From positions 82,331-146,330 of the IMG/VR virus record IMGVR_UViG_3300005535_000017: a stretch of DNA of 64,000 bases; one strand, given 5' to 3'. The first letter of the stretch is position 1, and each line of letters opens with the position of its first letter. The stretch is from a virus. Taxonomy: Duplodnaviria; Heunggongvirae; Uroviricota; Caudoviricetes. Below are positions 4,480-58,727 of the stretch, one piece after another. Made by a program: the position numbers and the translations under genes. The notes under the pieces were generated by a model that saw only the letters and a program-made list of their open reading frames with translations, did no database searches and had not been told where the DNA came from.

Positions 4480-6528
4480 ATGAGCGACCTCGGTCTCGCT
4501 GGCGGCATTGCCAGATTCGATTCGTTTCACGGTCGCCAAGAGGGCGGCGGAGGCGCTCTTCGTTACCCGTCTCCGTTCTTCGACATCGGCCACACGTATC
4601 TGCCCACCAGCATCAAGCAGATGTTCCGGTGGTGCCGGTACTACTTCCTCACCAACCCGCTGATCAACGCCGTCACTTACAAGATGGCGGAGTACCCGAT
4701 CACGGACATCATCGTCGACGAGGAAGACTCTGAGCAGCGGGCGAAGTGGATCGAGATGATCGAGCACCAGTTCAAGGTGCGTACGGTCGAGATCGAAGCC
4801 GGCCTGGACTATTACTGCTACGGCATCGCATTCATTTCGCTGCACTTCCCATTCGACAAGTACCTCGTCTGCCCGCACTGCAAGACGGAGTACAAGGCCA
4901 AGGACAAGCGGACCGAGTTCAAGTTCCGCAACCTCAACTACTTCTTGTCCTGCAAGAAGTGCGAGATGGTCGTCCAGGCCAAGATCGTCGACAACTACAC
5001 GAAGAACTATCGGGACATCAAGGTCATCCGGTGGAACCCGGAGTACGTCACCGCTGAGCACAACGACATCACCGGTGAGACGGCCTACTTCTTCGACATC
5101 CCCATGGCGACGAGGAACGACATCCTCATGGGGAAGCGTCACGTAATCGAGTCGATCCCGGACGTCTACATCGAGTCGCTTCGCTCCAACAAGAGCCTGC
5201 GCCTCACCTCGGACAACATGTTCGTGCTGAAGCGACCAACCATCGCTCAGAAGGACATGGGCTGGGGCATGCCCCTCATCCTGCCTGTCCTCAAGGACAC
5301 CTTCTACCTGCAGATCTTGCGGAAGGGGCAGGAGGCGATTGCCCAGCAGCACATCGTTCCGCTCCGCATCCTCTTCCCGCAGGCTGGTGGCGCCGACGCG
5401 AGCCCTTACTCGACGACGGACCTCGGCAATTGGCGCAAGAGGATCGAGCAAGAGCTCGCCAAGCAGCGAGTCGACCCGAACTACATCCCCATCATGCCGC
5501 TACCGGTGGGCAACGAGACGATCGGAGGCGAGGGCAAGGCACTCATGCTTCACCAGGAGATGCGCGCCTGGTCGGAGCAGATCGTCGCCGGCATGCACGT
5601 TCCCATCGAATTCGTCTTCGGCGGCCTGCAGTACTCTGGCTCCAACGTCTCGATGCGCATGCTCGAGAACCAGTTCCTCGGCTACCGCACCAACCTCCTC
5701 ATCATGGTCCGCGACTTCATTCTCGGGAAGATCGCCGACTACATGGAGTGGAACCGCCCGAAGCTGCACTTCAAGCGCTTCAAGATGGCGGACGATCTGC
5801 AGCGTCTCCAGCTCACCTTCCAGATGAACCAGGCGCAGAAGGTCTCGGACACCACGCTCCTCGACGAGGCCGATCTGGACATCGTTCAGGAAGAGAAGCA
5901 CAAGAGCGCCGAGATGGCGAAGCAGATGGACAACCAGCGCAAGCAGATGATGGCCTCCGCCGAGCTCCAAGGCGAGACGCTCCTTGTCCAGACGCGCTAC
6001 CAGATCCAGGCCCAGAAGCTCATGCAGGCCGCTGGAATGCCTCCGCCAGACCAAGGCGGTGGTGCCCAGAACCAACAGCTTGGCGACGCCATGAAGCAGT
6101 TCGCCGAGGGCCAGCAATTGGGAGGCCCCGGCGGGCCTGGTGGCGGTGGCGACATGCAGCCCAAGGAAGGTGACGACGCCGCCCCGGGCTTCCCAGAGGG
6201 TGTGAAGGCCTACCCGGAGAAGGGCGGGACCATGCCGAACGAGGGCATCCCGATGGAGATGCAGTCGCCGCTCACCCAGGCGGCTGGCCAAGGTGCTCTA
6301 TTCAGTCCGCTCTACCTCGCTCGTCGTGCGGCTACGCACTTCGAGAAGATGGATGAGATGACGAAGAACATCGAGCTCATCAAGATGAAGGGCAAGAACC
6401 CGCAACTCTACGGGCTCACCGTTCAGCTCCTCCAAGACGCGAAGGGCTCTCAGACTGATCCGCTTGACCCCGGTCAGTCGCCCATGCCAGACATCAAGCC
6501 GCCTCGTCGCAAGAACGCTCTCATCTGA
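4480..6528 (+). CDS. putative portal protein (682 aa)
   Basis: Size, acidic composition and Q/G/P-rich C-terminal tail (QMMASAELQGETLLVQTRYQIQAQKLMQAAGMPPPDQGGGAQNQQ) resemble podo/myovirus portal crown regions. Start TAAATG coupled to upstream gene. Assignment is by resemblance only. Confidence 0.4.
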   Translation: MSDLGLAGGIARFDSFHGRQEGGGGALRYPSPFFDIGHTYLPTSIKQMFRWCRYYFLTNPLINAVTYKMAEYPITDIIVDEEDSEQRAKWIEMIEHQFKVRTVEIEAGLDYYCYGIAFISLHFPFDKYLVCPHCKTEYKAKDKRTEFKFRNLNYFLSCKKCEMVVQAKIVDNYTKNYRDIKVIRWNPEYVTAEHNDITGETAYFFDIPMATRNDILMGKRHVIESIPDVYIESLRSNKSLRLTSDNMFVLKRPTIAQKDMGWGMPLILPVLKDTFYLQILRKGQEAIAQQHIVPLRILFPQAGGADASPYSTTDLGNWRKRIEQELAKQRVDPNYIPIMPLPVGNETIGGEGKALMLHQEMRAWSEQIVAGMHVPIEFVFGGLQYSGSNVSMRMLENQFLGYRTNLLIMVRDFILGKIADYMEWNRPKLHFKRFKMADDLQRLQLTFQMNQAQKVSDTTLLDEADLDIVQEEKHKSAEMAKQMDNQRKQMMASAELQGETLLVQTRYQIQAQKLMQAAGMPPPDQGGGAQNQQLGDAMKQFAEGQQLGGPGGPGGGGDMQPKEGDDAAPGFPEGVKAYPEKGGTMPNEGIPMEMQSPLTQAAGQGALFSPLYLARRAATHFEKMDEMTKNIELIKMKGKNPQLYGLTVQLLQDAKGSQTDPLDPGQSPMPDIKPPRRKNALI

Positions 6529-9845: not shown

Positions 9846-10228
9846 CCGCCCTCCAGCGTGATGTCACCGAGTACGAGTTGGAGGTGGCTCGCTGGGCGAT
9901 CCTCCTCATCTCGACGGCAGGCAGGGTTTTGACAGTATCCGTCGGTGTAGTACCCAGGAAGGCGTAGATGCCGACCCACCCCTTTGGATCGGCTCTTCAG
10001 CCTTGCGACGCAGCTCGTACAACACCACCACACTGTTCCTGCAGGGTGGTACGAGAGCTCGTGCTGCATGAGACTGCAGGTGTCGCAGTCGTACGCTCTG
10101 GTGCAGTTCCCGCGAACATGATCATTCCCGAGAACGTTGAAGCGGGGTGATCCGTCGGCGGTGAATGTGCCTCCGTTCGCCCTCCACAGCAACGGACAGA
10201 AAGCCTGCGGCACTCCATCGCCATCCAT
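9842..10228 (-). CDS. hypothetical Cys-rich protein (128 aa)
   Basis: Cys cluster CDTC...WWCCTSC...C. Transcribed divergently from the RNAP gene. Confidence 0.5.
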   Translation of the reverse strand: MDGDGVPQAFCPLLWRANGGTFTADGSPRFNVLGNDHVRGNCTRAYDCDTCSLMQHELSYHPAGTVWWCCTSCVARLKSRSKGVGRHLRLPGYYTDGYCQNPACRRDEEDRPASHLQLVLGDITLEGG

Positions 10229-10319
10229 GAGTCACCCCATGCCATACAACAGCCAAAGCATCCACTGCACGCGGATCAGAAAGAACAGACAGAATGCGAG
10301 GCGGACGGCGGTGAGCATG

Positions 10320-10445
10320 TCACTCGTCGCCTTCCGGTGTGATTACCCCCGAGATTAGGTCGTCGACAGCCTCCTCGTAATCGTTGTTCTCGTCCTCCGG
10401 TTGGTTCGAGTCGTTGTCACCTGGTTCGAAACTCTCTCGGCCCAT
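10320..10445 (-). CDS. possible small acidic protein (41 aa)
   Basis: Minus-strand ATG (rc of 10443-10445) preceded by AGAGGGAAG. Product MGRESFEPGDNDSNQPEDENNDYEEAVDDLISGVITPEGDE. Not in ORF track (<60 aa). Confidence 0.2.
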   Translation of the reverse strand: MGRESFEPGDNDSNQPEDENNDYEEAVDDLISGVITPEGDE

Positions 10446-10513
10446 GGCTTCCCTCTCTGCGAAAATAAAGCCTGCCTACGAAACTCTTATCTCCGGCAAT
10501 CTCTAGGTTTTAT

Positions 10514-13500
10514 TTGACGTCGGATCGTCTTCTGCCTACGCTGGAGGCACTTGGTCGGCCCGGAGATTGCCGTCAGGCAGAGGGCTGCAAGGAGATTATC
10601 GTGGCCGGTACCCCAGCAGAGACCTGGAAGTCCCTCCAAGAGCGTGTCGAGTCAGCAGTGAAGAGCTACTTCCCCTTCGAAGGAAGAGCGAAGAAGTTGG
10701 TTCTTCACAATCTCTCCTTCGATGATAGTGGCGCACCGAGAGATGACATCCGCTCTCAGGAGCAAGCGAAGGATCAGAAGAAGACCTGGGGCGCGAACGT
10801 CTTCGCCGACGTGAGCCTGATCGACAAAGCCACGGGACATGAGCTCGATCGAACCAAGATCAAGGTCATGACTCTCCCCAAGCCCACCAACCGCTACAGC
10901 TACATCGTCGACGGATCCGAGTGGCAGGTGGATAGCCTCTGGCGCCTGCGTTCGGGCGTCTACGCCCACATCAAGCAGAACGGCGAAATGGAGACCGAGT
11001 TCAACCTCGCCAAGCCGTTCGCGGGTAAGCCTCGTATCAAGATCCCGTTCGATCCAGAGTCTCGCAAGTTTCAGTTCCAGTGGGGCACCTATCACCCTCC
11101 GCTCTACTCCGTTCTCAAGGTTCTCGGCGTTCAAGACGAGGATATGAAGAAGGCGTGGGGCGAGGACATCTACAAGGCCAATGTCCCGAAGCACCCGGAG
11201 AAGGACATTGAAGAGCTCTACGCGAAGATCACCAAGAACTCGAAGCAGCAACTGCAAGGCCTAACCTACGACCAGAAGGCCTCTGCCGTTGTTGCCGAGT
11301 TCCACAAGACGGGTTTGTTGCCAGAGATGACGAAGCTCGTCTTCGGCAAGCCGTTCGACCACGTCAACGGGGAAGCTTTGCTGCTGGGCTCGCAGCGGAT
11401 TCTTGGAGTGACCAAGGGCGATATCCCACAGGACGATCGCAACTCACTCGTCTTCAAGACACTGCACGGAACGGACGACTTCCTGCACGAGCAGCTCACC
11501 AAGTCCAAGATGAAGCGGACCCTTGCTGGAAAAGTCGGCAACAACATCGACCGGCAGGATAAGGTTCGCGACATCATCTCCGGCGACCTCTTCAATCGCC
11601 CCATCAAGGAGTTCTTCACGAGCTCCATGCTCTCGAAGAACCCGGAGCAGGTGAACCCGCTCGAGATGATCTCGAATCATCGAGCGACGACGATCATGGC
11701 CGAGGAGGGCGGTATCAAGAAGGAGCAGTCGGTTACGCCCGACATGAAGCTCATCAACCCCTCGCACTTCGGCTATCTCGATCCGATCCACACGCCGGAG
11801 TCGGAGCGCACCGGTATCACTCTGCACTTGCCCATCGGCGTCAAGAAGAGGGGCAACGACCCCATCATGCAGGTCTATGATCTGAAGGCGAAGCAGTTCG
11901 CCAAGGTCACGCCGGCCGAGCTACACCGAGAGAACGTGCTGCTGCCAGATCAGGTCGTCATCAGGGACGGGCGCCCGCATCCGATTGCGGACCTCGTGAA
12001 GATGAAGGACCCGATAACACACGAGATGCTGGAGAAGCCTTTCTCCGAGGCTCGCTACCTCGTTGTTCAGCCCTCGCAGCTCTACGATGAGGCGACCAAC
12101 CTCATCCCGTTCCTGCAGAACAACCAGGGCAACCGCACGATGACCGCGTCCCGCCAGGGCACGCAGGCCGTCTCTCTGCACAATCGCGAGCAGCCTCTCG
12201 TTCAGGTTTTGGCAGGCGGGTCTCAGACCTGGGAGAAGCTCACCGGTCTCGACTGGTCCCACAATGCTCATCACGACGGCAAGGTGGTGGAGATCAAGAC
12301 CAGCAAGGAGAACGGCCACGCTGAGGCTATCGTCATTCAGGACGCGGCCGGCAAGCGACACGAGGAGCAGATCTACAACCACTTCCCGCTCAACGACTCG
12401 AAGACCTTCATCCACTCGACGCCGCTTGTGAAGGTCGGCGATTCGGTGAAGAAGGGGCAGACCCTCGCCGACACCAACTTCACACGGCAGGGCTCTCTGT
12501 CCCTTGGAACGAACCTTCGCGTCGCGTATTTACCGTACAAGGGGTACAACTTCGAGGACGGCATCGTCATCTCCGACTCAGCAGCAAAGAAGCTGACGTC
12601 GGAGCACTTGCACCGTCGGACGCTCGAGACAGATCCCGAGAGGGACGAGATCTCGAAGTCGAGGTTCATCGCCTTCGCCAGCACGATGTCAAAGAAGCTG
12701 ACGAAGGACCAGATGTCCAAGATCGGGACGGACGGTCTGATTCGAGTCGGTCAGCGGGTCGAGCCGGGAGACATCCTCGTTGCAGCAGTGGGCAAGAAGG
12801 ACTACGCCGGCGAGACTGGTCGGTTGATGAGTCGTCTGTCGAAGAAGGCCTTCAATCTCCAAGACCGAAGCGTGGTCTGGGATTCCGACCACCCGGGTGA
12901 GGTGGTGAAGGTCGTCAAGCTCCCGAACAACAAGGGAGCCGTCGTTCACGTCAAGACGCTCGAGTCCGCCGAGGTCGGTGACAAGATCGTCGGCCGACAC
13001 GGCAACAAGGCCATCATCACCCGCATCCTGCCCGACCACGAGATGCCTCGCATCGGTGGCGCAGATGGCCAGCACGTCCAGGTCCTCATGAACCCATCCG
13101 GCGTCCCGACCCGCATCAACCTCGGTCAGATGCTCGAGACAGCCGCCTCGAAGGTCGCCGAGAAGACGGGCAAGCCCTATGTCGTCACCAACTTCGCCGG
13201 GCCGCACGTCGACTACACCAGCAAGGTGAAAGAAGACTTGGCGAAGAATGGCATCAGCGATCAAGAAACGCTCTTCGATCCGACCAACGGCAAGAAGCTC
13301 GGAGACGTACTGACGGGCAATCAGTACATCTTCAAGCTCAAGCACCAGGTCGAGAAGAAGCTCGCCGTCCGAAGCGGAGGTCGACAGGGCGGTGGTTCCT
13401 ACACCGTCGACCACGCTCCCAAGGGCACAGGTGCGGAGCACCCCGGCCAGGGCCTGGGGCAGCTCGAGTTCTACGCTCTGCTCGCTCACGGAGCGCGCCA

Positions 13501-16500
13501 CAACCTTCGCGAGATGGCCACCTACAAGGCCGACCAGCACCTCGGGGACAATCTCGACGACATGAATCACACCGACTTCTGGGATCGCGTCCGCACGGGC
13601 CAGCCGCTGCCGGCTCCTCGCCCGACGTTCGCGTACAAGAAGTTCGAGAACCTGCTCACCGGCCTCGGCGTCAACATCCAGAAGCAAGGCAACGAGCTCC
13701 AGCTCATGCCGTTGACTGACAAGGGCGTGCTCGCTCTCTCGCACGGCGAGATCAAAGACGCTGGTCGCATGCTCCGTGGCAAAGATGCCAAGGAGCTGGA
13801 GAAGGGCCTCTTCGACCCGAAGATCACCGGCGGCCTGCCGGATGACAAGGGCAAGGGACTCTTCTGGTCTCACATCAAGATGGCCGAGCCGGTTCCCAAT
13901 CCGGTGTTCGTCGGCTCGAGCAAGTCGCAGCTCGGCCCGGCCGTCATCCTATCCGGTCTTCGGTATGAAGACTTCGAAGCGGTTGCGAAGGGCAAGAAGG
14001 CCCTGCCCAACGGCGAGACAGGTGGTATCGCAATCAACAATCTTCTCAAGAAGATCGACGTCAAGGCCGAGCTGAAGAAGACGCTCGCTGAGCTCCCGAA
14101 GCTGAAGAAGGACGCGCTCAACAAGGCCAACAAGAAGGCGCGCTACCTCATCGCTCTCGACAAGCTCAACATGAAGCCGCACGAAGCGTACATGATGAAC
14201 TACCTGCCGGTGCTGCCGCCGGCGTTCCGGCCCATTGTTCCGATGCCGGATGGTTCACTGCGCTACGACGACATCAACCAGTACTACCACGCCATCGGTC
14301 TCCTCAACGATCGTCTGAAGAACCCGGTCAAGGAGCTCGGCGGTGCCTCGGAGAGGAACGTCCGCGAGCAGCTCTACGACGCCATGAGGGCCTACGCTGG
14401 CCTCGGTGGGCGTCCGGTCTACGAGTCGAACCGCCCGATGAAGGGCATCCTCGACGTCGTTGCTGGCGATCAGCCGAAGCAAGGCTACTTCCAGAAGCGG
14501 CTCATGAAGCGCCGGCAGGAGCTCTCCATGCGCTCCACCATCATCCCGGAGCCGGCCATGCACCTCGACTACGTGGGCCTACCGAAGGAAGCGGCGATGG
14601 AGCTCTACAAGCCTTTCGTCGTGCGAGAGCTGGGTCAGGTCGGCCTCAACCCGGTCAATGCGCTGAAGGCGGTGAAGGAGAATAGGGACATCGCCTGGAA
14701 GGCGCTCGAGAAGGCGATGGACAAGCGCCCGGTCCTCCTCAAGCGAGACCCGGCTCTGCACAAGTTCTCGATCATGGCCTTCAAGCCGAAGATGGTCGAG
14801 GGCAAGGCCATCCAGATCCACCCGCTGGTCACCGCTGGCTACAACGCTGACTTCGACGGCGACACCATGTCCGTCTTCGTCCCGCTCACGGACGAGGCAG
14901 TCAAGGAGTCCCACAAGATGTTCCCGTCGAACAACCTCTTCAGCTCGACCAGCGGCGACATCATGTACCAGCCGACGCAGGAGTCACTGCTCGGTCTTCA
15001 CCTTCTGACGAAGTGGGGCAAGGAGACTGGTAAGACATTTCCCAACTTCCTCGAAGCACAGAAGGCGAAGGACAGAGGTGCTCTTGGCATGAACGACGTC
15101 TTCACCATCGGTGGCAAGAAGACGACGCTCGGCCGCATGACAATCAATAGCTACTTCCCAGACGGCTTCAAGGCCAACGAGGAACTTCTGCACGACTCGA
15201 AGTTCACGCTCAAGAAGAAGAACGTGAAGCAGCTCCTGGGTAACCTGGCCCGCCAGGACCCGAAGAGCTTCGCCCTCACCGTCGACAAGCTGAAGGACTT
15301 GGGTAACAACTACTCCTACGAAGCGGGGTTCTCCTTCGGTCTGAAGGACCTTGATGTTCAGAAGGGGCTGCGTGATCACATCCTCCACCCCTACGATGTC
15401 GAGGCGGGAAAGATCAGGTCCAGCAAGCTCTCGAAGGAAGAGAAGGACGCCAAGCTGGTGAAGATCTACTCGATGGCGACCGATGAGCTCGAGAAGGAGC
15501 TCCTGCCGCACTTCGAGAAGACGGACAACAAGATCTACACGATGGTGTACTCCGGTGCTCGCGGCTCGACGCCGCAGTTCCGCCAGATCACCATGGCTCC
15601 GATGCTCATGAAGGACGGCGCTGGCGGCACCATCCCCACTCCGGTCAAGAAGAGCTATGCGGAGGGTCTCGACGTCGGTGACTACTGGACGTCTCTCCAC
15701 GGCGCCCGCATGGGTACCCTGCAGAAGGTCGAAGGTACCTCTGAGCCTGGAGCTCTCACCAAAGACGTTGCTAACGTCATGATGCCGACGCTGATCGTCT
15801 CGAACGATTGCGGTACCAAGAACGGCATCACGATGAATGTGGCCGACGTGGAGATCCAGGATCGAGTTCTGGCCAAGGAAGCGAAAGTGGGTAAGCACAC
15901 GCTCGCTCCTGGCACGATCATCACTCCAGAGGTGACGGCAACTCTGCAGAAGCACGGCGTCGACAAGATCATCGTGCGGTCTCCTCTGAAGTGCGCCCAC
16001 GGGCAGGGCCTGTGCGCCAAGTGCTACGGACTCAGTGAGAACGGACACTTCCACGAAGTCGGCACCAACATCGGCGTGATCGCCGGACACGCTCTTGGTG
16101 AGCCAGCGACGCAGCTCGCCATGGACTCGTTCCACACCGGTGGCGTCGCGGCGTCTCGAGGCGCCGGTGCGGTCGACAAGTTCACTCGACTGAACCAGCT
16201 TCTCAATGTCCCCAAGATCCTGTCGCACTCTGCTACCCTATCCACCATGGAAGGGACCGTGTCTCGGATCGAGCACGACAAGGCGACGAACGGTCACTAC
16301 ATCCACATCGGCGGGGAACGGCACTACGTCCCGGCCGTCAACAAGGTCACCGTCGCTGTGGGCGACAAAGTCTTCCCGGGCCACGCGCTGTCGGACGGCC
16401 CCATCAATCCCCGCGAGCTCTTGCCGCTGACCGACATCCACAATGTGCAGAACTACGTCACGAACAGCCTACACAACGATGTGTACAAGGACGAGCACGT

Positions 16501-16870
16501 CAAGCGCCGCAACATCGAGACAGTAGTGCGCTCTCTGACCAACCTCGCTCGCGTCGAGGATCCGGGCGATTCGGCACACCTGCACGGAGACCTCGTCCTT
16601 CGCACTGTGGTGGATGAGCACAACCGCAGCCTGAAGCCCGATGAGAAGCCGATCATCGCAAAGCCAGTTATTCGCTCGGCGGAGCAGGTCGCCCTCGACC
16701 AGCACGAAGACTGGATGGCGCGTCTCAACTTCGAGCGTTTGCGGCAGACCATTCTCGAGGGTGCGTCTCGAGGCTGGAAGAGCAACATCCACGGGCCCAA
16801 CCCCGTTCCCGCCTATGTCTTCGGTGCGGAGTTCGGCAAGGGCACCAAAGAGAATCCGCACCACTACTAA
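10514..16870 (+). CDS. rpoBC: multisubunit DNA-directed RNA polymerase, fused beta / beta-prime subunits in one polypeptide
   Basis: 2118-aa ORF. Beta motifs GDKIVGRHGNKAIITRILP (GRHGNKG) and GQLEFYALLAHGA..LREM (GEMEVWALEAYGAA). Beta C-terminus KKFENLLTGLGVNIQ runs directly into beta-prime. Beta-prime motifs NYLPVLPPAFRPIVP, KRDPALHKFSIMAFKP, NADFDGDTMSVFVPL (catalytic Asp triad) and a bridge-helix-like LHGARMGTLQK. The likely true start is the GTG at 10601, preceded by AAGGAG at 10589-10594; the track start at 10514 has no RBS. Confidence 0.9.
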   Translation: MTSDRLLPTLEALGRPGDCRQAEGCKEIIVAGTPAETWKSLQERVESAVKSYFPFEGRAKKLVLHNLSFDDSGAPRDDIRSQEQAKDQKKTWGANVFADVSLIDKATGHELDRTKIKVMTLPKPTNRYSYIVDGSEWQVDSLWRLRSGVYAHIKQNGEMETEFNLAKPFAGKPRIKIPFDPESRKFQFQWGTYHPPLYSVLKVLGVQDEDMKKAWGEDIYKANVPKHPEKDIEELYAKITKNSKQQLQGLTYDQKASAVVAEFHKTGLLPEMTKLVFGKPFDHVNGEALLLGSQRILGVTKGDIPQDDRNSLVFKTLHGTDDFLHEQLTKSKMKRTLAGKVGNNIDRQDKVRDIISGDLFNRPIKEFFTSSMLSKNPEQVNPLEMISNHRATTIMAEEGGIKKEQSVTPDMKLINPSHFGYLDPIHTPESERTGITLHLPIGVKKRGNDPIMQVYDLKAKQFAKVTPAELHRENVLLPDQVVIRDGRPHPIADLVKMKDPITHEMLEKPFSEARYLVVQPSQLYDEATNLIPFLQNNQGNRTMTASRQGTQAVSLHNREQPLVQVLAGGSQTWEKLTGLDWSHNAHHDGKVVEIKTSKENGHAEAIVIQDAAGKRHEEQIYNHFPLNDSKTFIHSTPLVKVGDSVKKGQTLADTNFTRQGSLSLGTNLRVAYLPYKGYNFEDGIVISDSAAKKLTSEHLHRRTLETDPERDEISKSRFIAFASTMSKKLTKDQMSKIGTDGLIRVGQRVEPGDILVAAVGKKDYAGETGRLMSRLSKKAFNLQDRSVVWDSDHPGEVVKVVKLPNNKGAVVHVKTLESAEVGDKIVGRHGNKAIITRILPDHEMPRIGGADGQHVQVLMNPSGVPTRINLGQMLETAASKVAEKTGKPYVVTNFAGPHVDYTSKVKEDLAKNGISDQETLFDPTNGKKLGDVLTGNQYIFKLKHQVEKKLAVRSGGRQGGGSYTVDHAPKGTGAEHPGQGLGQLEFYALLAHGARHNLREMATYKADQHLGDNLDDMNHTDFWDRVRTGQPLPAPRPTFAYKKFENLLTGLGVNIQKQGNELQLMPLTDKGVLALSHGEIKDAGRMLRGKDAKELEKGLFDPKITGGLPDDKGKGLFWSHIKMAEPVPNPVFVGSSKSQLGPAVILSGLRYEDFEAVAKGKKALPNGETGGIAINNLLKKIDVKAELKKTLAELPKLKKDALNKANKKARYLIALDKLNMKPHEAYMMNYLPVLPPAFRPIVPMPDGSLRYDDINQYYHAIGLLNDRLKNPVKELGGASERNVREQLYDAMRAYAGLGGRPVYESNRPMKGILDVVAGDQPKQGYFQKRLMKRRQELSMRSTIIPEPAMHLDYVGLPKEAAMELYKPFVVRELGQVGLNPVNALKAVKENRDIAWKALEKAMDKRPVLLKRDPALHKFSIMAFKPKMVEGKAIQIHPLVTAGYNADFDGDTMSVFVPLTDEAVKESHKMFPSNNLFSSTSGDIMYQPTQESLLGLHLLTKWGKETGKTFPNFLEAQKAKDRGALGMNDVFTIGGKKTTLGRMTINSYFPDGFKANEELLHDSKFTLKKKNVKQLLGNLARQDPKSFALTVDKLKDLGNNYSYEAGFSFGLKDLDVQKGLRDHILHPYDVEAGKIRSSKLSKEEKDAKLVKIYSMATDELEKELLPHFEKTDNKIYTMVYSGARGSTPQFRQITMAPMLMKDGAGGTIPTPVKKSYAEGLDVGDYWTSLHGARMGTLQKVEGTSEPGALTKDVANVMMPTLIVSNDCGTKNGITMNVADVEIQDRVLAKEAKVGKHTLAPGTIITPEVTATLQKHGVDKIIVRSPLKCAHGQGLCAKCYGLSENGHFHEVGTNIGVIAGHALGEPATQLAMDSFHTGGVAASRGAGAVDKFTRLNQLLNVPKILSHSATLSTMEGTVSRIEHDKATNGHYIHIGGERHYVPAVNKVTVAVGDKVFPGHALSDGPINPRELLPLTDIHNVQNYVTNSLHNDVYKDEHVKRRNIETVVRSLTNLARVEDPGDSAHLHGDLVLRTVVDEHNRSLKPDEKPIIAKPVIRSAEQVALDQHEDWMARLNFERLRQTILEGASRGWKSNIHGPNPVPAYVFGAEFGKGTKENPHHY
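10515..10543 (+). promoter_or_regulatory. possible sigma70-like promoter upstream of the RNAP gene
   Basis: TTGACG (10515-10520), 17-nt spacer, TACGCT (10538-10543), in an AT-richer divergent intergenic region. Weak -10. Speculative. Confidence 0.2.
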
Positions 16871-16872
16871 TC

Positions 16873-18021
16873 ATGAGCAGACGCGCTGTAGACGCCTTCC
16901 CCAAGAAGCGCTCGTCCTCCACGGCGACGACGGATCTTCGCGACGTTTCCGTTTATCGGGGCCGTGTCGTCAACGTCAACATTCGGGACTACACGGTGGA
17001 CACCCGAATGGAGGCTGCGCCCTATACGGTGAAGTTCGACATCCCCTTCATCTCTCCCTACGTGAATCAGAACCAGGGAGAGGGCATCAACTGGATGCCG
17101 GAAGTCGGGTCGGTTTGCTGGGTCTGTGAGCCTTCAGAAGACGGACGAGAGAGCTTCGTTCTTGGCTGGTCTGTGGTGGATGAGGGCGGCAGCTATCGTG
17201 GTGGGCGCTCTCTTCTCAATCCTGGAGACATCGAGCTCAAGACAAGAGACCTGAACTTCGTCACTCTCCGTCGAGGAGGGATCGTTCAGATCGGCTCTAC
17301 TCCCATCTGCCAGCGCATCTTCCTACCCATTCGAAACGTGATGCAGGACTTCGCCGAGAACTACGAGCTCCACACCCCGGCTGGTGACCTCACATGGCAG
17401 GTGCAGAGGAAGGATGAAGATTCCGACGGGCACCAGAAGTGTCTGTACCAAATCGCCGCCAAAGAGTTCGCGGACGACTCCAATGACAAGACGGTCGCCC
17501 TCCTCAAAATCGGTTCCCATGGCGACGGTGACAAGACTATCCTGACGCTGCAAACCCGCGATAAAGGTGGAGGAGACGTCAAGATAGGGCTCACCTTCGA
17601 CAAGGACGGCAACGTCAACTGGACCATGGAAAAGAACTACTCCTTGGTGCTCAACTCAGGTGACCTGACGCTCCAAGCGAAGCAGGGCAAAGTCTCGGTC
17701 TCGTCGAACAAGGCGATGTCGCTCGATAGCCAAGACTCGATGGATCTCCACAGCACAAAGGCGATGGGAATCAAGACGGACGACGCGATGACGATCCAGG
17801 CCATGCAGAAGCTGGTGCTCAAGGGCACAGCGGGGATCGATATCGACTTGGCGCAATGGCCCGTCTTGCGCAACTCTCCTGACTTCATCCAGTTCATCGC
17901 TGCAGTCGCTGCTCAGCTTGGAACTCCAGTGACGACGCCCTTCGGCACTCTCGTCGCTGCGAACCCTGGCATCCTCTCGATGATTCCCAAAAACCACCAG
18001 AACCCGAAGGTGAAGGTCTAA
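16873..18021 (+). CDS. baseplate central spike/hub protein (gpV / gp5-like OB-fold plus beta-helix)
   Basis: 382 aa. N-terminal PYVNQNQGEGINWMPEVGSVCWVCEPSEDGRESFVLGW resembles the P2 gpV OB-fold (VGEQVLILAVGGELDTAFVLPG). C-terminal repetitive beta-strand segment rich in short T/S/D/K units. Start 2 nt after the RNAP stop, no own SD. Confidence 0.5.
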   Translation: MSRRAVDAFPKKRSSSTATTDLRDVSVYRGRVVNVNIRDYTVDTRMEAAPYTVKFDIPFISPYVNQNQGEGINWMPEVGSVCWVCEPSEDGRESFVLGWSVVDEGGSYRGGRSLLNPGDIELKTRDLNFVTLRRGGIVQIGSTPICQRIFLPIRNVMQDFAENYELHTPAGDLTWQVQRKDEDSDGHQKCLYQIAAKEFADDSNDKTVALLKIGSHGDGDKTILTLQTRDKGGGDVKIGLTFDKDGNVNWTMEKNYSLVLNSGDLTLQAKQGKVSVSSNKAMSLDSQDSMDLHSTKAMGIKTDDAMTIQAMQKLVLKGTAGIDIDLAQWPVLRNSPDFIQFIAAVAAQLGTPVTTPFGTLVAANPGILSMIPKNHQNPKVKV

Positions 18022-18022
18022 C

Positions 18023-20041
18023 ATGAATCTCTTCCTCGATCAGGACTTCAAGCCGACCTTCGAGAAGGTGGCCATGCCGGTGAAGCTCGGTGACAACACC
18101 GAGAACTGGCAGCGGGAGATCGCATCGGAGATCTACAAGCAGCTCCCCTACCTGGCGGACTACTCGGTCAACGTGATGCTCGATCGCGTGGATGCCCAGC
18201 GGGGCTACGCCTTCGGAGCTGCCGAAGTCACCAATCAGACGGATTCTCCTCTGCCTGATCAGCCGGAGAACTCGGTCAAGATCCCCATCATCGTCAAGGA
18301 CCGGCTCATGCAGCCACTGGACGTGATGCTCGATGGCAACGAGGCTCTTCCTCTCAACGAACGCCGCCTGCGGGAGAAGCTCTTCCGCACGGCCGCCGTC
18401 GAGACGTCAACCCGCAAGCCCACCGATCAGGGCATGGTCGACCAGCTCTATCCGCCGATGCGTACCAATTACGGCTACGGCAATGCCGTGGCGACTGGCG
18501 TTGGTGTTGGCGGCTTCGGCAAGCAGGCGTCAGCGAAGAAGCCCCTGTGCGAGGTGATTGCCTCGACCATCTCTGATCAACAGTACGAAGCCTTCCTCGA
18601 GAAGATCGCCTCCGACGAGGAGACCCGTCTTCTCTTCCTGAAGAACGCGTCGGTTCGGAAGATCTCGAACCGGATGGCGATGGTTCAGCACATGAGCGTC
18701 GAGAAGACGGCTTCGGCGCTGATCCACAGCATCAAGCCGACGGTCGTGCAGATCACCAAGCTCGCCTCGGGCAACTTCAAGGTGAAGTGGGCCAACGCCG
18801 GCGCCTTCGCTCCGCAGGAGATGCAGGCCTCGCCGGACCAGGCTGCCGCCATGGCTGGGCAGGACATGTCGAAAATGCAGCCAGGTCAGACCATGACGGT
18901 CACCACCCAGCGTGCTCAGAAGCAGGGCCTGGACGAGCCGGATGGGGCGCTCATCACTGAGTTCGGTGATTACGCTGTGAAGAACGCGGACAGTGGCGAG
19001 ACTCTGATGGGCACCGTGCTGCCTGTGGTCGACTTCCAGATGCAGCCACTTGAGTTCTTCGTCTTCACTGATGGCCACGGCGCCTATGGTGCTCAGGACG
19101 AGATCATCGGTGTGCGTCAGGAGGGACCTGGCGGCATGGCTCTCGAGGCGGCTCAAGGACAGCAGCCGCAGGGCGACGGCATTTTCGTCTACCACCCACA
19201 GGGTGGTGCCAAGCCATTCTCGACTCTTCCTCTCACCATCGAATCGACCTCGCAGGGCCCGGACGGGATGCTGCAGTACATGGTCAGCGACGTCTTCGGG
19301 GCGCAGATGACCCTCGTCCCCACTCCTGGTATCTCTGCATTCGAGCCGATGGGAGAGGGCGATATGTTCGCCATCCCGGACGACATGCAGTGGGTGCCCC
19401 TGAGCGGAGAGCCGGTTCACCTGGCCAAGGGTGACACCCCGGACTCGGCGGCCGATGCCAAGAGCTTGCCGAACGAAGTGGCCGTCAAGTCGACGGGCCC
19501 AGGAGAGACGTCTCTCGAGGGCATGCCGGTCATGAAGGTTGCCCGAGACAACCGCTGGTTCTTGAAGACGGCGGAGGCAACGTTCCTGCTCTGCGCCATG
19601 GGCCTTACCCAGGACGAAGCGCAGGAGGTTATCAAGGAAGCGGAGCGTCGCCCCAATAAGCTGGTGAAGCTTGCAGGCCTGAACCCCATCGTGCCGCTCG
19701 GCGACATCCACGCGAATGCAGAGAAGAAGGCTGCGGCGCTGCTCGAGCAATTCGATTACAGCTTCTGGCGCCGGGACTTGGTGAAGGAGGCGGCTGCGCT
19801 CGAGGACACCGAGACGGCCGACAAGATTCTCGCCATGAACTTCATCAACCCGGAGAACATCTCCATCTTCGCCAGCTACCTCCCCGACCTCGACACGACA
19901 TCGACCAAGCTCGCCGAGATGCTGATCGCCTCACGTCTCGGCCTCAACCAGGTCCCGACTGGTGCCGCCGAGCGTGCCATGAAGAACATGGAAGAGGTGA
20001 TCGGCGGCCTTCGCTCGCTCCAGCAGAAGGAGCTCGTCTAA
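18023..20041 (+). CDS. hypothetical protein, probably structural (672 aa)
   Basis: Start 1 nt after the spike stop (translational coupling). No motif recognised. Confidence 0.5.
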   Translation: MNLFLDQDFKPTFEKVAMPVKLGDNTENWQREIASEIYKQLPYLADYSVNVMLDRVDAQRGYAFGAAEVTNQTDSPLPDQPENSVKIPIIVKDRLMQPLDVMLDGNEALPLNERRLREKLFRTAAVETSTRKPTDQGMVDQLYPPMRTNYGYGNAVATGVGVGGFGKQASAKKPLCEVIASTISDQQYEAFLEKIASDEETRLLFLKNASVRKISNRMAMVQHMSVEKTASALIHSIKPTVVQITKLASGNFKVKWANAGAFAPQEMQASPDQAAAMAGQDMSKMQPGQTMTVTTQRAQKQGLDEPDGALITEFGDYAVKNADSGETLMGTVLPVVDFQMQPLEFFVFTDGHGAYGAQDEIIGVRQEGPGGMALEAAQGQQPQGDGIFVYHPQGGAKPFSTLPLTIESTSQGPDGMLQYMVSDVFGAQMTLVPTPGISAFEPMGEGDMFAIPDDMQWVPLSGEPVHLAKGDTPDSAADAKSLPNEVAVKSTGPGETSLEGMPVMKVARDNRWFLKTAEATFLLCAMGLTQDEAQEVIKEAERRPNKLVKLAGLNPIVPLGDIHANAEKKAAALLEQFDYSFWRRDLVKEAAALEDTETADKILAMNFINPENISIFASYLPDLDTTSTKLAEMLIASRLGLNQVPTGAAERAMKNMEEVIGGLRSLQQKELV

Positions 20042-20166: not shown

Positions 20167-21000
20167 GTGACGACACCTCTCTTCACCGCCTTCTCCGACG
20201 AGTTCCAGCAGATCCAGCGACTGAAGCTCGCGAGTCCGCTTGGTGTCGCAAAGTCGTGGTTGAAGGGGCAGTACGCACAGCTCGGCAACGCCGCGGCCCA
20301 GGCATCCCAAGGACACCAGTCCTTCAGCCCGATGCTTGGTCAGCCCGCTCCACCGATCGTCGGAACGATCACCAACTTCCTCGCCAACAAGCTGCCGACC
20401 CCAAAGAAGCCACCGGGGCCGGTCATCGAGGGAGCCAAGCGCCTTCTTAGCTCTAAGCCGGCGAAGACGATCATCCCCCTCATCGATCAAACCAGCGAGT
20501 TCTTGAAGCTCGCACAGGTCGAGCCCTACCAACAGAAGACACAATACTCATGCTCAGCGGCGTGTCTGAAGGCCGTGCTCGAGCACTGGGGAGCCGATCG
20601 CTTTGCCGAGCACGAGATCATGTACGCCATCGGCGTGCGCGATCGCGGCGGTGCGGAGGTGGACGAGATCACCCGTGGAGCTCAGAAGCTCGGCTTCGAC
20701 GCGTACGACAAGTGCTTCTCGTCCCTCGATGAGGCGAAGGCAATCACCGATCAGGGCATCCCGATCATTGCCGACTTCCAAAGCTTCAACAACCCTGGCA
20801 AGGGGCACTACGTCGTCATCACTCAGATCGACGACAATGTGGTCCATCTGATGGACCCCAACACCGATGGCAACCAGCGTGTTATTACACGCGCTGAGTG
20901 TGAGCAGCGGTGGTGGGACAAGACCATGGCCCCGCCACACAACCTGATGGTGAAGTGGGGAGTGGTGGTCACCCCAAGGAGTGGCGATGGGACTCGGTGA
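20167..21000 (+). CDS. putative papain-like cysteine peptidase (C39-like domain)
   Basis: 277 aa. C-terminal half has Cys in QYSCSAACLKAVLEHWG and His in GKGHYVVITQID, then N/D, arranged as in C39 / transglutaminase-like cysteine peptidases. Motif-level only. Confidence 0.4.
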   Translation: MTTPLFTAFSDEFQQIQRLKLASPLGVAKSWLKGQYAQLGNAAAQASQGHQSFSPMLGQPAPPIVGTITNFLANKLPTPKKPPGPVIEGAKRLLSSKPAKTIIPLIDQTSEFLKLAQVEPYQQKTQYSCSAACLKAVLEHWGADRFAEHEIMYAIGVRDRGGAEVDEITRGAQKLGFDAYDKCFSSLDEAKAITDQGIPIIADFQSFNNPGKGHYVVITQIDDNVVHLMDPNTDGNQRVITRAECEQRWWDKTMAPPHNLMVKWGVVVTPRSGDGTR

Positions 21001-21463
21001 CTTCATCAAGACTAACCCACGTGCCTTCCTCACCGGCGTTGGGGCAGTTGCTGGCGGTGCTGGCGGAGCCGTCCGTGGATTGACGATGAAGTCCTGGCAT
21101 GACCAGTGGCGAGATGTAACGCACCACTATGATGCCGAGCAGAGAAAGAAAAACGCGTGGAAGATGGGGCTCGCTGGCGGAATCGCTGGCGGTCTCGTCG
21201 GGTACACAACTCCCGTTCATACAGTGCCGGCCTCAGCACTCCCCAAAGCAGTCCCGTCGGCCTTCAAAGGCGTAAAGTCGCAGAAGGACGTGAAGAAGCT
21301 CGTCCGCGAGTTCTCGCTCAAGCACCATCCAGATCGCGGCGGTGATGCCAAGAAGTATCGAGAGTTCATCGACGCCTACAACGCGTTCAAGAAGCATCCC
21401 AAGTTCCCGAAGACGGCCATGGTGGCCTTTGTGGACGAGATGCTCCACATCCTCAATCGATGA
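20981..21463 (+). CDS. membrane-anchored J-domain (DnaJ-like) protein
   Basis: 160 aa. N-terminal Gly-zipper hydrophobic segments (GVGAVAGGAGGAV; LAGGIAGGLVGY). C-terminal J-domain signature LKHHPDRGGDAKKYREFIDAYNAF with the HPD tripeptide. Confidence 0.65.
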   Translation: MAMGLGDFIKTNPRAFLTGVGAVAGGAGGAVRGLTMKSWHDQWRDVTHHYDAEQRKKNAWKMGLAGGIAGGLVGYTTPVHTVPASALPKAVPSAFKGVKSQKDVKKLVREFSLKHHPDRGGDAKKYREFIDAYNAFKKHPKFPKTAMVAFVDEMLHILNR

Positions 21464-22917
21464 GTCGTCTCGCTACCAACCTCGGGAAGATCGCGGGCGT
21501 GGCAGGGCTACAGCCCCATCAGCAGCGTGTTGTCGATCGTATCCAGCAGCCTGACCAGCCGGGCTTGGTGGTGGCGCACGGTCTCGGTTCTGGAAAGACG
21601 AGAACTGCGATCGAGGCTCAGAAGGCTCTCAAGATGCCGTCGGACGTCATCGTTCCGGCAGCACTCCAGGCGAATTACCGCAAGGAGCAGAAGAAGTGGT
21701 TGGGCGGAGCCAAGCAGAAGGCTCATGTCCAGTCGATGCAGAACATCACGAGGAAGCGTCAGGCTCCGACGCAGCCCCTGATGATCGTCGACGAGGCTCA
21801 CCGTGCTCGTGAGCCTCAGACGCAGACCTACAAGACGCTGGCGAAGAACGAGGCCGAGAAGCGCCTGCTTCTGACCGGCAGTCCATTCTACAACCGCCCG
21901 TCTGACATTGCGCCACTCGTAGACCTCGCCTCTGGAGCGCCGTTGCTTCCGACGGACCCGGAGCGGTTCAATCAGAGGTTCATTCGTCAGAAGAAGATTA
22001 GCCCTGGCATCATCAATCGACTCCGCGGCCTCAAGCCGGGTGTCGTTGAAGAGCTGAACCCCAAGCGCCAGGAAGAGCTTCAAGGCATCTTCGACAAGTG
22101 GGTCGACTATCACCCGTCTGCGAAGGAAGACTTCCCCGAGGTCAATCGTGAGGACGTCAAGGTGCCGATGGACCCGAAGCAGCTCGAGGTCTACGACACC
22201 ATCCTGAAGAAGGCGCCACCTTGGGTGTCGGCCAAGATCCGCTCTCGTCTGCCTCCCAGCAAGCGGGAATCCCAGCAGCTCAACGCCTTCTTGGGGGCCA
22301 GTCGGCAAATCGCCAACTCCACTGCTCCCTTTCAGGAGGACGTGAAGAAGGTCTATGAGCCCAAGCTGGACGAAGCCTTCTCTCGGTTGCAGCAAGAGCT
22401 TGCCGCGAACGAGAGGGCAAAGGCTGTCGTCTACTCCAACTACCTCGGCGCAGGCATCAATCCCTACGCCCAGAGGCTTCAAGAAGCTGGCATCCCCTAC
22501 GGCGAGTTCACCGGTGAGATGCCGAAGTCGAAGAGGGACGAGCTCGTCAGGCAGTACAACGAGAACAAAATTCGCGCCCTCTTGCTCTCTTCGGCCGGTG
22601 GAGAAGGTCTCGATCTGCAGGGCACTCGACTCATCCAGATGCTAGAGCCTCACTGGAATGATGAGAAGTTGAAGCAGGTTGAGGGTCGTGGCATCCGTTA
22701 CAAGAGCCACGCGATGCTTCCCCCAGAAGAGCGGAATGTGAAGGTCCAGCGGTTCTTGGCGACTCGCCGTCCAACCGGCGTTCTCGAGAAGCTGCGCCTC
22801 AAGAAGCCAGGTGGATCGGTCGACGAGTACCTTGCCGCCAGGGCCCAGGAAAAGGAAAACTTGATCCAACAATTCCGGGCCCTACTTGAACAACAGCAGC
22901 AGCCTGCAGCACAATAG
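21460..22917 (+). CDS. SNF2-like superfamily-2 helicase/ATPase
   Basis: 485 aa. Walker A GLGSGKT, DEAH box MIVDEAHRARE, motif III LLTGSP, helicase-C motifs SAGGEGLDLQG and QVEGRGIRYKS. Confidence 0.75.
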   Translation: MSRLATNLGKIAGVAGLQPHQQRVVDRIQQPDQPGLVVAHGLGSGKTRTAIEAQKALKMPSDVIVPAALQANYRKEQKKWLGGAKQKAHVQSMQNITRKRQAPTQPLMIVDEAHRAREPQTQTYKTLAKNEAEKRLLLTGSPFYNRPSDIAPLVDLASGAPLLPTDPERFNQRFIRQKKISPGIINRLRGLKPGVVEELNPKRQEELQGIFDKWVDYHPSAKEDFPEVNREDVKVPMDPKQLEVYDTILKKAPPWVSAKIRSRLPPSKRESQQLNAFLGASRQIANSTAPFQEDVKKVYEPKLDEAFSRLQQELAANERAKAVVYSNYLGAGINPYAQRLQEAGIPYGEFTGEMPKSKRDELVRQYNENKIRALLLSSAGGEGLDLQGTRLIQMLEPHWNDEKLKQVEGRGIRYKSHAMLPPEERNVKVQRFLATRRPTGVLEKLRLKKPGGSVDEYLAARAQEKENLIQQFRALLEQQQQPAAQ

Positions 22918-25728: not shown

Positions 25729-26061
25729 CTAACCTCTGTTGGTGAACGGTCCTCGCTTATCGCTCAGCAGCGGATTCTTTTGCTGAACAGGTCCGAGGCG
25801 CCGTTTCGTTCCAACGACGAGGATTAGTTTGTCTGGCTGGTTGTATATGCGCTGCAAGACGCAGTCATTCGCGTTGGCGAAGCCGTGCGCCAGATTCTGG
25901 AAGGGGCGGTAGTTCTCGCCAGTGAGTGGCTCTCTGAGATGGAAGATGACGTTCTTGATGAGTGGGTTGACAGTATCTTCGATGGTGTACGTCGAGGAGA
26001 TGTCAGCCGCTCTGTTGAACGACGCATGGAACTCTCGGACCCAGGCGAGGGAGGGTTGCAT
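25729..26061 (-). CDS. hypothetical protein (110 aa)
   Basis: First gene of a short minus-strand unit ending with rnhB. Confidence 0.45.
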   Translation of the reverse strand: MQPSLAWVREFHASFNRAADISSTYTIEDTVNPLIKNVIFHLREPLTGENYRPFQNLAHGFANANDCVLQRIYNQPDKLILVVGTKRRLGPVQQKNPLLSDKRGPFTNRG

Positions 26062-26105: not shown

Positions 26106-26540
26106 GTGAACAAGATCCGCTACCCACGAAGAACTAAGACTTGTCCACGGTGCAAGAAAGACAAGCCGGCTACGGCTAAGTTCTTCTGTCCAGACAAGCG
26201 AGGCTATATTTGCTGGTGCAGGCGCTGCTCGGCCGACCGAGCGACTGAGTGGGGAAAGACCAATCATCGTCGACAAACGGATACTCGATTCAAGAGACGC
26301 TACGGCCTCTCCATAGAAGAGTTTGATGCACTAGTCCTACAGCAGAACGGCAAATGCGCCATCTGCGGAGAGGCCCCAAAGGCCGTGAAGAGCAAACTTC
26401 AGGGATTCAACGTGGACCACGACCACAAGACGAAGAAAGTCCGGGGGCTGCTTTGCTTCGGGTGCAACACTGGAATCGGCTGCCTGAGGGATAACCCTTC
26501 CCGGCTGCGGTCTGCTGCCGACTACCTCGAGAGGATGTAA
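26106..26540 (+). CDS. recombination endonuclease VII-like nuclease (His-Me finger) with N-terminal zinc ribbon
   Basis: 144 aa. NGKCAICGEAP...FNVDHDHKTKKVRGLLCFGCNTGIG aligns with T4 endonuclease VII (GKCLICQ...HLDHDHELNG..GKVRGLLCNLCN). N-terminal CPRC...CWCRRC. Immediately upstream of the terminase gene. Confidence 0.8.
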   Translation: MNKIRYPRRTKTCPRCKKDKPATAKFFCPDKRGYICWCRRCSADRATEWGKTNHRRQTDTRFKRRYGLSIEEFDALVLQQNGKCAICGEAPKAVKSKLQGFNVDHDHKTKKVRGLLCFGCNTGIGCLRDNPSRLRSAADYLERM

Positions 26541-28796: not shown

Positions 28797-28867
28797 CTGT
28801 CGTCTCCATGTGAGGGGTACGAACGAAAAAACGTTCGTTCACGTCACACCTCTTATCCCGAGACGTT

Positions 28868-43884: not shown

Positions 43885-44347
43885 GAAGCACTGTCGCTAC
43901 TGCGATCGGACACTTCTTCGCTCGGCATTCAGAGAAATAAGGCCCAAGACGGGCCGAGGCGCAGGTAAGGTCTATCGCTCTTCCTGCTGCCTGGAGTGCG
44001 AACCGAAGCGAACAAAGGCCGAACGGGAAGAGAAGAAGCGCAAAGATCCTGCTGGTCTCTATCGCCGTGAACTTGATCGCAAGTTGCGTTACATGTACAA
44101 CATCTCGCTCGCCGATTACGAGCAGTTGTTCGCTGAGCAGCGAGGCCTTTGCATCGGATGTCTAGCCCCTCCAGAGGAAGGAGTCCGATTCGACGTCGAC
44201 CATGATCATGCGACGGGAGAAGTCAGAGGACTCCTCTGCAACCGTTGCAACAACGTCTTGAGCAAGGCCAAAGACAATCCAGAGATACTTCGCCGTCTGG
44301 CTTCCTACCTCGATGAGCATCAGGCTAAGCTACGAGTGGTCGCATGA
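43769..44347 (+). CDS. recombination endonuclease VII-like nuclease, second paralog, with N-terminal zinc ribbon
   Basis: LCIGCLAPPEEGVRFDVDHDHATGEVRGLLCNRCNN matches the Endo VII core. Upstream CRYC...CCLEC ribbon. The start is uncertain: the track ATG 43769 overlaps the previous gene by 116 nt; the alternative ATG is at 43820. Confidence 0.7.
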   Translation: MSRRRPRETLPTQPTWTMTPSDSTSWLFTGTTPEEPSAEKHCRYCDRTLLRSAFREIRPKTGRGAGKVYRSSCCLECEPKRTKAEREEKKRKDPAGLYRRELDRKLRYMYNISLADYEQLFAEQRGLCIGCLAPPEEGVRFDVDHDHATGEVRGLLCNRCNNVLSKAKDNPEILRRLASYLDEHQAKLRVVA

Positions 44348-54736: not shown

Positions 54737-54769
54737 CCTCCACTCCCTCTTATCTCACGATGATGGTCA

Positions 54770-58601: not shown

Positions 58602-58727
58602 TCATCGCTCCTTGATAAGAAACGGATCTGGGATCACCGCGCTTATCCCGGAGGAGTTGTAGCGTTTTCCGTCGGTGCTGTCAGCTAAGAAAATGCCGGA
58701 GAAGATCCGGCGAGGAGTACTGGGGAA

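Follow-up and report, generated by a model that had tools for sequence, protein, structure and literature searches.

A single-chain beta-beta' RNA polymerase encoded in a conserved operon with a baseplate spike is a probable virion protein in a clade of large uncultured phages

Here we describe a single-chain RNA polymerase (RNAP) of the bacterial beta-beta' type that is encoded directly upstream of a baseplate spike gene in a 64,000-nt stretch of tailed-phage DNA (IMG/VR record IMGVR_UViG_3300005535_000017, positions 82,331 to 146,330; hereafter the window). The window has 60% G+C and was analysed together with 20 kb of flanks (~84 kb in total), and the whole genome is probably ~200 kb long. 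On balance, we favour the view that this RNAP, together with an SNF2-family helicase and a 672-aa protein resembling gp218 of Salmonella phage Arash, is carried in the virion and delivered to the cell, where it would transcribe the early-type genes of the opposite strand from the motif cGGrGATAAGA. Four lines of evidence point in this direction: the homologues in Arash are virion proteins, the order RNAP, spike, gp218-like protein is conserved among relatives, the promoter motif is shared with Arash, and no second RNAP was found. An earlier note on this DNA had also proposed a virion RNAP, on the grounds that the RNAP and spike genes are translationally coupled; the proposal is the best-supported reading on the four grounds above, while the coupling argument itself did not hold. 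The presence in Arash virions is taken from the literature, and from there we infer packaging and injection in the window phage, the pairing of the polymerase with its promoter, and the timing of its action.

An RNA polymerase and a baseplate spike in one operon

The features of the region are as follows, with open reading frames (ORFs) given from start to stop and the Shine-Dalgarno sequence abbreviated as SD.

10485-10492, minus strand: phage-specific promoter-like motif ccGGAGATAAGAG, kept in relatives and pointing to a 41-aa ORF at 10320-10445 (minus strand)
10514-10542, plus strand: predicted sigma70-type promoter TTGACG-N17-TACGCT, 58 nt upstream of the RNAP start
10556-10587, plus strand: predicted hairpin in the RNAP 5' leader, GGCCC...UGCC-GUCA-GGCA...GGGCU, from folding
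10601-16870, plus strand: single-chain beta-beta' RNAP, 2089 aa, from Pfam, SD and N-terminal conservation
16868-16875, plus strand: junction of RNAP stop and spike start (TAA at 16868-16870, spacer tc, ATG at 16873), from the sequence
16873-18021, plus strand: predicted central baseplate spike, 382 aa, with an N-terminal OB-fold and a C-terminal beta-helix
18023-20041, plus strand: 672-aa gp218-like protein, from hhalign to Arash gp218 and Vibrio phage D69 gp266
20167-21000, plus strand: Peptidase C39-like protein, 277 aa, from Pfam
20987-21463, plus strand: 158-aa protein with a glycine-zipper match and a DnaJ-like match, both weak
21460-22917, plus strand: SNF2-family helicase, homologue of Arash gp217, from Pfam, PHROG and tblastn (E 1e-89)

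The RNAP is a true fusion of beta and beta' in one continuous ORF, as the earlier note had recognized. Pfam models place Rpb2_3, Rpb2_6 and Rpb2_7 at aa 378-1009, followed by Rpb1_1 to Rpb1_5 at aa 1177-1992. Among the beta models, the E value was 2.4e-61 for Rpb2_6 (Rpb2 domain 6, the DPBB-containing beta domain), 1.4e-7 for Rpb2_3, and 6e-4 for Rpb2_7, the last of which is below the curated cut-off. The beta' part contains the catalytic Mg-binding motif NADFDGD (here 'GYNADFDGDTMSVF'). The first in-frame start codon of the ORF is a TTG at 10514, which would give a protein of 2118 aa, and a GTG at 10601 would give 2089 aa. The GTG is most likely the true start, as it has a good SD (AAGGAG), its equivalent was chosen by gene callers on identical metagenomic contigs, and a protein beginning there fits the N-terminus that is conserved in 43 relatives.

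We did not find genes for alpha, omega or sigma subunits in the ~84 kb of window and flanks. The earlier note had suggested a search for a second, non-virion RNAP set, and this search returned none: there is no paralogue in the window and its flanks, Arash and D69 have one set each, and no second set was found among the best 80 RNAP loci of at least 515 IMG/VR contigs, the 80 loci being on 80 different contigs. In some relatives the RNAP contains LAGLIDADG-type inteins, for example in L033 (1086-9962) and L012 (2082-9926). One intein site lies directly after the catalytic NADFDGD, L033 has a second intein in the beta part, and long RNAP ORFs also occur in L010, L019, L023, L024, L030, L041 and L047. 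Insertion of inteins explains why RNAP ORFs in relatives reach 2400-2960 aa.

The 382-aa gene directly downstream was described as gpV/gp5-like in the earlier note, and both the structure prediction and profile matches to the Protein Data Bank (PDB) indicate that it encodes a genuine central baseplate spike of the P2 gpV/T4 gp5/VgrG type. An N-terminal OB-fold domain is present, and the spike profile had 20 matches among PDB sequences, all of which are gp5/VgrG-type beta-helices, over residues ~237-326 and with E values from 0.0036 to 5.8. The model is a monomer of moderate confidence (pLDDT 68, the predicted local distance difference test), and a trimer goes beyond what a monomer model can show. 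A Pfam scan returned only DUF2345 and DUF3540, both sub-threshold, and there was no match in PHROGs. If the gene encodes a central spike, as predicted, the phage would therefore have a baseplate of the contractile-tail type. The 672-aa protein appears by profile-profile comparison to be a remote homologue of the Arash virion protein gp218 and of D69 gp266 (hhalign probability 97.2%, E 3.5e-11, 526 columns), and the match to these counterparts is weaker by single-sequence comparison. It had no PDB sequence match and no fold match, and its model is also of moderate confidence (pLDDT 73).

The three genes are closely packed. The RNAP gene ends in cac-cac-tac-TAA (16868-16870), followed by tc and the spike ATG at 16873, and the spike gene ends in aag gtc TAA (18019-18021), followed by c and the ATG of the 672-aa gene at 18023. 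The spacers of 2 nt and 1 nt are thus as the earlier note had given them, and so is the missing SD of the spike: no SD-like tetramer (GGAG, GAGG or AGGA) occurs within 18 nt upstream of its ATG. The 672-aa gene is preceded by a weak AAGGTGAAGG. As the spike gene has no ribosome-binding site of its own, its translation most likely depends on ribosomes that finish the RNAP gene 2 nt before it and then reinitiate. The earlier note had taken this coupling as a sign of packaging, but the spacing is ordinary for the window. In our gene map, 22 of 53 same-strand junctions (42%) are 5 nt or shorter and ~13 of 53 genes lack an SD, mostly those that abut the preceding gene, so termination-reinitiation coupling, a plausible mechanism for the spike, would be generic there.

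Homologues in the virions of a cultured relative

Searches of deposited phages with tblastn matched the RNAP to Vibrio phages D69, D148 and D181 (~187 kb) and to Salmonella phage Arash (181 kb), with ~30% identity to D69 and to Arash gp206 plus gp216 over 97% of the length. The likeness to these phages goes beyond this one protein. They share a canonical beta/beta' RNAP, its location on the structural strand, a single RNAP set, and homologues of the portal (E 1e-80), the SNF2 helicase (E 1e-89) and the gp218-like protein, and the capsid protein of the window has a match in D69. There are also clear differences. The RNAP of Arash and D69 consists of two ORFs, separated within beta' by inserted genes or homing endonucleases; it lies directly after the portal gene with overlapping ORFs, and the spike is encoded elsewhere in the genome.

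Arash virions have been purified on sucrose gradients and analysed by liquid chromatography with tandem mass spectrometry (PMC10585845). The N-terminal piece of the RNAP, gp206, was the top-detected protein, with 128 unique peptides and 3516 spectra, and the C-terminal piece, gp216, was represented by 40 unique peptides and 1210 spectra (PMC10585845). The SNF2 helicase gp217 (38 unique peptides, 1148 spectra) and gp218, the homologue of the 672-aa protein (36 unique peptides, 1149 spectra), were detected as well, along with the portal gp204 (32 unique peptides, 877 spectra) and the major capsid protein gp226 (30 unique peptides, 1333 spectra), and the primase, the ligase and two other helicases had 2 unique peptides each (PMC10585845). 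From these data we calculated ~1.9-2.4 spectra per residue for gp206, gp216, gp217 and gp218 versus 1.5 for the portal, a rough and semi-quantitative measure which suggests that the four proteins of the RNAP module are present at similar, non-trivial copy numbers. A sigma70-family factor, gp10, was also detected in the virions (PMC10585845), and we found that its gene is located inside the structural block. The presence of the RNAP in virions is reported in that study, without further analysis of the enzyme (PMC10585845).

Gene order is conserved among relatives

We used two sets of relatives from IMG/VR to examine the gene order. The spike-selected set was obtained by scanning with the spike profile and consists of 50 loci in which spike identity ranges from 100% down to 29%, while the RNAP-selected set was chosen by the catalytic region of the RNAP alone; here the best 80 loci of at least 515 contigs were kept, and 75 could be evaluated. 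The clade is large and uncultured, with contigs of up to ~220 kb. The spike is encoded directly downstream of the RNAP and on the same strand in 69 of the 75 RNAP-selected loci, and it was not detected in the other 6, in which 1.2-1.4 kb of downstream sequence was available. The junction measures between -9 and +17 nt in 44 of the 75 loci, with a 1-nt overlap (TAATG or TGATG) being the most common arrangement, and one ORF of 0.3-1 kb is inserted between the two genes in 25. Relatives with a gap of 8-12 nt carry an SD (GGAG or GAGG) within it.

In the spike-selected set, a single-chain RNAP of 2065-2960 aa is found directly 5' of the spike wherever a locus extends upstream, and a homologue of the 672-aa protein is next after the spike in all 50 loci. 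Beyond this trio the genes are shuffled among relatives, with C39 alone, C39-GNAT, C39-InPase or the SNF2 helicase following. Because the order of the trio is kept while the downstream genes are reshuffled, we regard RNAP, spike and 672-aa protein as a selected unit. Gene order, unlike spacing, exceeds what is expected by chance.

The downstream genes include some unusual fusions. In L003 (13337-14593) the C39 peptidase is joined to a GNAT acetyltransferase and in L004 (14575-16851) to InPase, and InPase also occurs in an 801-aa protein of the window (31527-33932, plus strand) whose N-terminus resembles a head-maturation protease. These C39, InPase and GNAT fusions resemble injected polyvalent proteins, which Iyer et al. 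reportedly described in 2017.

Separate classes of predicted promoters on the two strands

The region directly 5' of the RNAP is a divergent control region. Relatives share its block CTCTTATCTCC (10483-10493), which reads GGAGATAAGAG on the minus strand. The window has 9 copies of [GA]GATAAG, 8 of which occupy the minus strand and precede genes of that strand by 35-70 nt; the minus-strand sites include 10485-10492, 25754-25761, 28851-28858, 54748-54755, 58641-58648, 60108-60115 and 62979-62986. An array of small ORFs beyond the window (L060, 1-10700) has 14 copies of the motif versus 1.7 expected, all of them in the direction of the genes. A similar picture was found in Arash, where GGTATAAG occurs 15 times on the minus strand in 74 kb, compared to ~1.2 expected per segment, with the copies 30-55 nt upstream of minus-strand genes. 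In both phages a motif of this type thus lies on the strand opposite the RNAP. D69 has one clear copy, and as its counts are not above those of shuffled sequences, the argument across hosts rests on Arash. A motif core that is common to phages with different genomes and hosts would most simply be read by a shared phage polymerase, not by that of the host. The extended form cGG[AG]GATAAGA has no -35 element, and its copies are often just past a hairpin that is followed by CTTAGCT.

The RNAP itself is preceded by an element of a different kind, the sigma70-type sequence at 10514-10542. That this element is the promoter of the operon is a prediction, and it is equally compatible with host-driven early expression, which leaves the late expression that the earlier note had assumed for the RNAP operon without a firm basis. 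In five relatives (L035, L037, L039, L046 and L051) only 5-6 nt separate the -10 element and the start codon, a distance expected for a leaderless mRNA.

In the window phage, the element is followed by the leader hairpin, which has a predicted fold of -18.2 kcal/mol (z -1.0). At least 15 relatives have a hairpin 40-52 nt before the start codon in which the stems differ and the pairing is kept, with equivalents in L009, L010, L012-L014, L016, L019, L022, L025, L026, L028, L029, L032 and L033. The general pattern is CCCGAGRACC, a variable stem, a GCGC-type loop, the complementary stem, and TAGGGC. When the leaders were aligned with MAFFT and folded with RNAalifold, no more than the 3 outer pairs emerged, as the loops were misaligned, so folding of individual sequences was more informative. 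The hairpin had no match in Rfam and may serve in autoregulation or processing. The leader also has a repeated CTGCCTACG, which we dropped from consideration because it is not enriched in the window. We also looked for a common promoter of the plus-strand structural operons, and rejected the TAGGR-like strings found there as too weak and confounded by TAG stop codons.

In Arash, elements resembling CTAAAATA lie upstream of the portal-gp205-RNAP operon, the second RNAP piece, the endolysin and structural genes. There are six such copies, all on the plus strand (including L002 7754, 17301, 19077 and 22347, and L058 30632), and the element resembles the late promoter of T4. The counts of CTAAAATA alone are not above those of shuffled sequences, and it is only strand and position that are suggestive. 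Together these suggest a class of late promoters in Arash.

Proposed packaging of the polymerase and alternative explanations

The events that we envisage begin with an operon consisting of promoter and structured leader, RNAP, spike, gp218-like protein, C39 peptidase, small protein and SNF2 helicase. The RNAP, the helicase and the gp218-like protein would be built into the virion and would enter the cell with the DNA, and the injected RNAP would then transcribe the early-type genes on the opposite strand from cGGrGATAAGA. The same enzyme would probably serve later transcription as well, because it is the only phage RNAP that we found. Its gene lies among virion genes, as it shares an operon with the spike (adjacent in 69 of 75 loci) and with the gp218-like homologue.

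Several observations weigh against packaging. The RNAP of Arash is only ~30% identical to that of the window phage, and the Arash spike is encoded away from it. The Arash preparation comprised 116 "virion" proteins, including obvious enzymes, and its authors allow for carry-over (PMC10585845). Arash-type sigma factors were not found in the ~84 kb of the window phage, and tblastn with the Arash sigma factors gave no match in the loci of relatives either. The spike had no tblastn match in 50,697 phage records, so the immediate clade has no cultured member there. Lastly, the element at 10514-10542 is the sole match to TTG[AC]C-N17/18-TAnnnT in the window and its flanks, and 28 of 42 distinct relatives have an equivalent sigma70-type element (TTGACS-N17/18-TAnnnT) 5' of the RNAP, compared to 1.8% of random 260-nt segments.

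This last observation fits an infection program like that of T7, in which the RNAP is not packaged, the host sigma70 holoenzyme produces the RNAP operon first, the new RNAP then transcribes the rest of the genome, and the virion genes of the operon simply ride along. The position of the -10 element in some relatives fits a real leaderless transcript start, and every other transcription unit that we examined has motifs that are not host-like. We give this explanation a minor but real chance of being correct. Against it, Arash virions robustly contain the counterparts of the RNAP, the helicase and the gp218-like protein, all relatives encode the RNAP on the structural strand amid virion genes, and it would be unusual for a baseplate spike to be co-expressed early. 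A host-type promoter is also compatible with packaging: the gene for the N4 virion RNAP is itself transcribed by the host sigma70 RNAP late in infection, and such a promoter therefore does not exclude a packaged enzyme.

In a variant of packaging, which we find rather doubtful, the RNAP would ride as cargo on the tail or spike and enter the cell ahead of the DNA within the puncturing device. The idea stems from the position of the RNAP gene, which is kept directly 5' of a VgrG-like spike gene and coupled to it, with the gp218-like gene following; effectors of the type VI secretion system are likewise encoded beside the VgrG that carries them, and the tape-measure fusion of the virion RNAP in Thermus phage P23-45 is a second parallel. 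The separate location of the spike gene in Arash speaks against it. Finally, the RNAP and spike could be neighbours through historical accident and ordinary operon packing, with no bearing on where the RNAP resides, and the frequency of tight junctions (42%) and of genes that lack an SD (a quarter) in the window, the distance between the two genes in Arash and D69, and the small ORF between them in 25 of 75 loci would all agree with this, but it is improbable given that the order is kept in 69 of 75 RNAP-selected loci and down to 29% spike identity, a range over which the C39, GNAT, InPase and helicase genes are reshuffled.

Comparison with known polymerases and spikes

Virion RNAPs are established for N4, phiKZ/AR9, crAss-like phages and P23-45, of which the N4 enzyme is T7-like and those of phiKZ, AR9, crAss-like phages and P23-45 are two-barrel enzymes that are highly diverged or fragmented. 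The virion RNAP of N4 and gp66 of the crAss-like phage phi14:2 are similar to the RNAP described here in being giant single polypeptides encoded among structural genes. In the crAss-like phages, packaging was first argued from the location of the gene within the structural module. The N4 enzyme belongs to the T7-like single-subunit family, and the two-barrel enzyme gp66 cannot be recognised as related to beta/beta' from its sequence, whereas the RNAP of the window matches nine Pfam beta/beta' models. The enzymes of phiKZ and AR9 are related to beta/beta', are packaged and injected, and read early phage-specific promoters, but those of the phiKZ type consist of 4-5 highly divergent polypeptides, lack sigma, and are accompanied by a second, non-virion set. 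The RNAP of the window forms one continuous chain of a much more canonical type, and the search for a second set found none in the window and its flanks. A similarity is that phiKZ-type phages have an SNF2/Rad25-like helicase linked to their RNAP genes (PMC7824862). In Thermus phage P23-45, the virion RNAP is also tied genetically to a tail component that is the first to enter the cell (bioRxiv 10.1101/2022.12.01.518664); there, a minimal two-barrel RNAP is fused covalently to the tape-measure protein of a siphovirus, while the RNAP of the window is encoded by a separate gene next to a contractile-tail spike.

Deep-branching beta and beta' subunits have been described in the mReC lineage of metagenomic tailed phages, some of which have genomes of >200 kb (Weinheimer and Aylward 2020, PMC7481178). 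The window is similar in that both beta and beta' are found on a tailed-phage contig, here one with TerL, capsid, portal and spike genes. It differs in its marker genes, as the mReC phages have a T4-type capsid protein (PF07068) and a TerL of PF03237, and the window has a TerL of PF05876 and a capsid protein without a Pfam match. No contig identifier of our clade was found among the mReC supplement entries listed, and the paper does not mention fusion of the subunits, linkage to a spike, or packaging (PMC7481178).

The spike resembles P2 gpV, T4 gp5 and the VgrG of type VI secretion systems in having an N-terminal OB-fold followed by a C-terminal part that is predicted to be beta-helical. In contrast to these proteins, it has no lysozyme domain and it carries an additional helical C-terminal tail of ~50 aa. 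Its gene in this clade always follows the RNAP and is not part of a baseplate gene cluster.

What is new here is therefore the combination of a canonical beta-beta' RNAP in one chain with a baseplate spike in a conserved operon. This RNAP is probably borne by the virion; a 2026 review of jumbo phages leaves out this type of enzyme. If the proposal is correct, a bacterial-type beta-beta' core can be packaged without an alpha-dimer platform and without the need for a second polymerase set, and a transcription core close to that of cells can be delivered through a contractile tail. Such an enzyme would also provide a minimal, self-assembling RNAP of the multisubunit type for use in structural biology and biotechnology. 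With at least 515 IMG/VR contigs that encode a relative of this RNAP, the clade is a large one, and the gene order and the two sharply separated promoter classes make the question of packaging directly testable.

Other features of the genome segment

The plus strand of the window encodes further structural and packaging proteins, among other genes:

4480-6528, plus strand: portal homologue, E 1e-80 to Arash and D69
plus strand: class II ribonucleotide reductase
start at 26540, plus strand: TerL, PF05876 (GpA_ATPase)
31527-33932, plus strand: the InPase-containing protein of 801 aa
38027-39145, plus strand: major capsid protein, from phrog_2522 only (no Pfam match), with a match in D69

DnaB, a primase, UDG, dCMP deaminase and RNase HII are encoded on the minus strand and in the sequence past both ends of the window, and the opposite strand past the window carries an array of ~25 small ORFs that is typical of early genes. 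The interval 9846-10319 consists of 474 nt without a called gene between two minus-strand ORFs and has a normal G+C content.

We also searched for the host of this phage, but no assignment was made. The only matches to the spike in genome collections were L141, a 162-kb contig from a Leptolyngbyaceae (cyanobacterial) metagenome-assembled genome, and L142, from a Myxococcota metagenome-assembled genome; both are probably phage contigs that were binned with cellular sequence, and they are weak hints of a host at best.

Directly after the capsid gene, a 258-aa ORF (39261-40037, plus strand) contains a C-terminal domain of ribosomal protein L7/L12 (Pfam E 2e-12), which is unusual for the structural module of a phage. 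Two plus-strand ORFs have an Endonuclease VII domain, one directly 5' of TerL (26106-26540) and the other in the structural block (43769-44347), and both may be packaging-associated resolvases or mobile nucleases. On the minus strand, which is the early-type strand, there are a VWA protein (54770-56959), a MoxR-like AAA_5 ATPase (57621-58601) and a protein with collagen triple-helix repeats (58728-59588), each of which is located behind a GATAAG motif.

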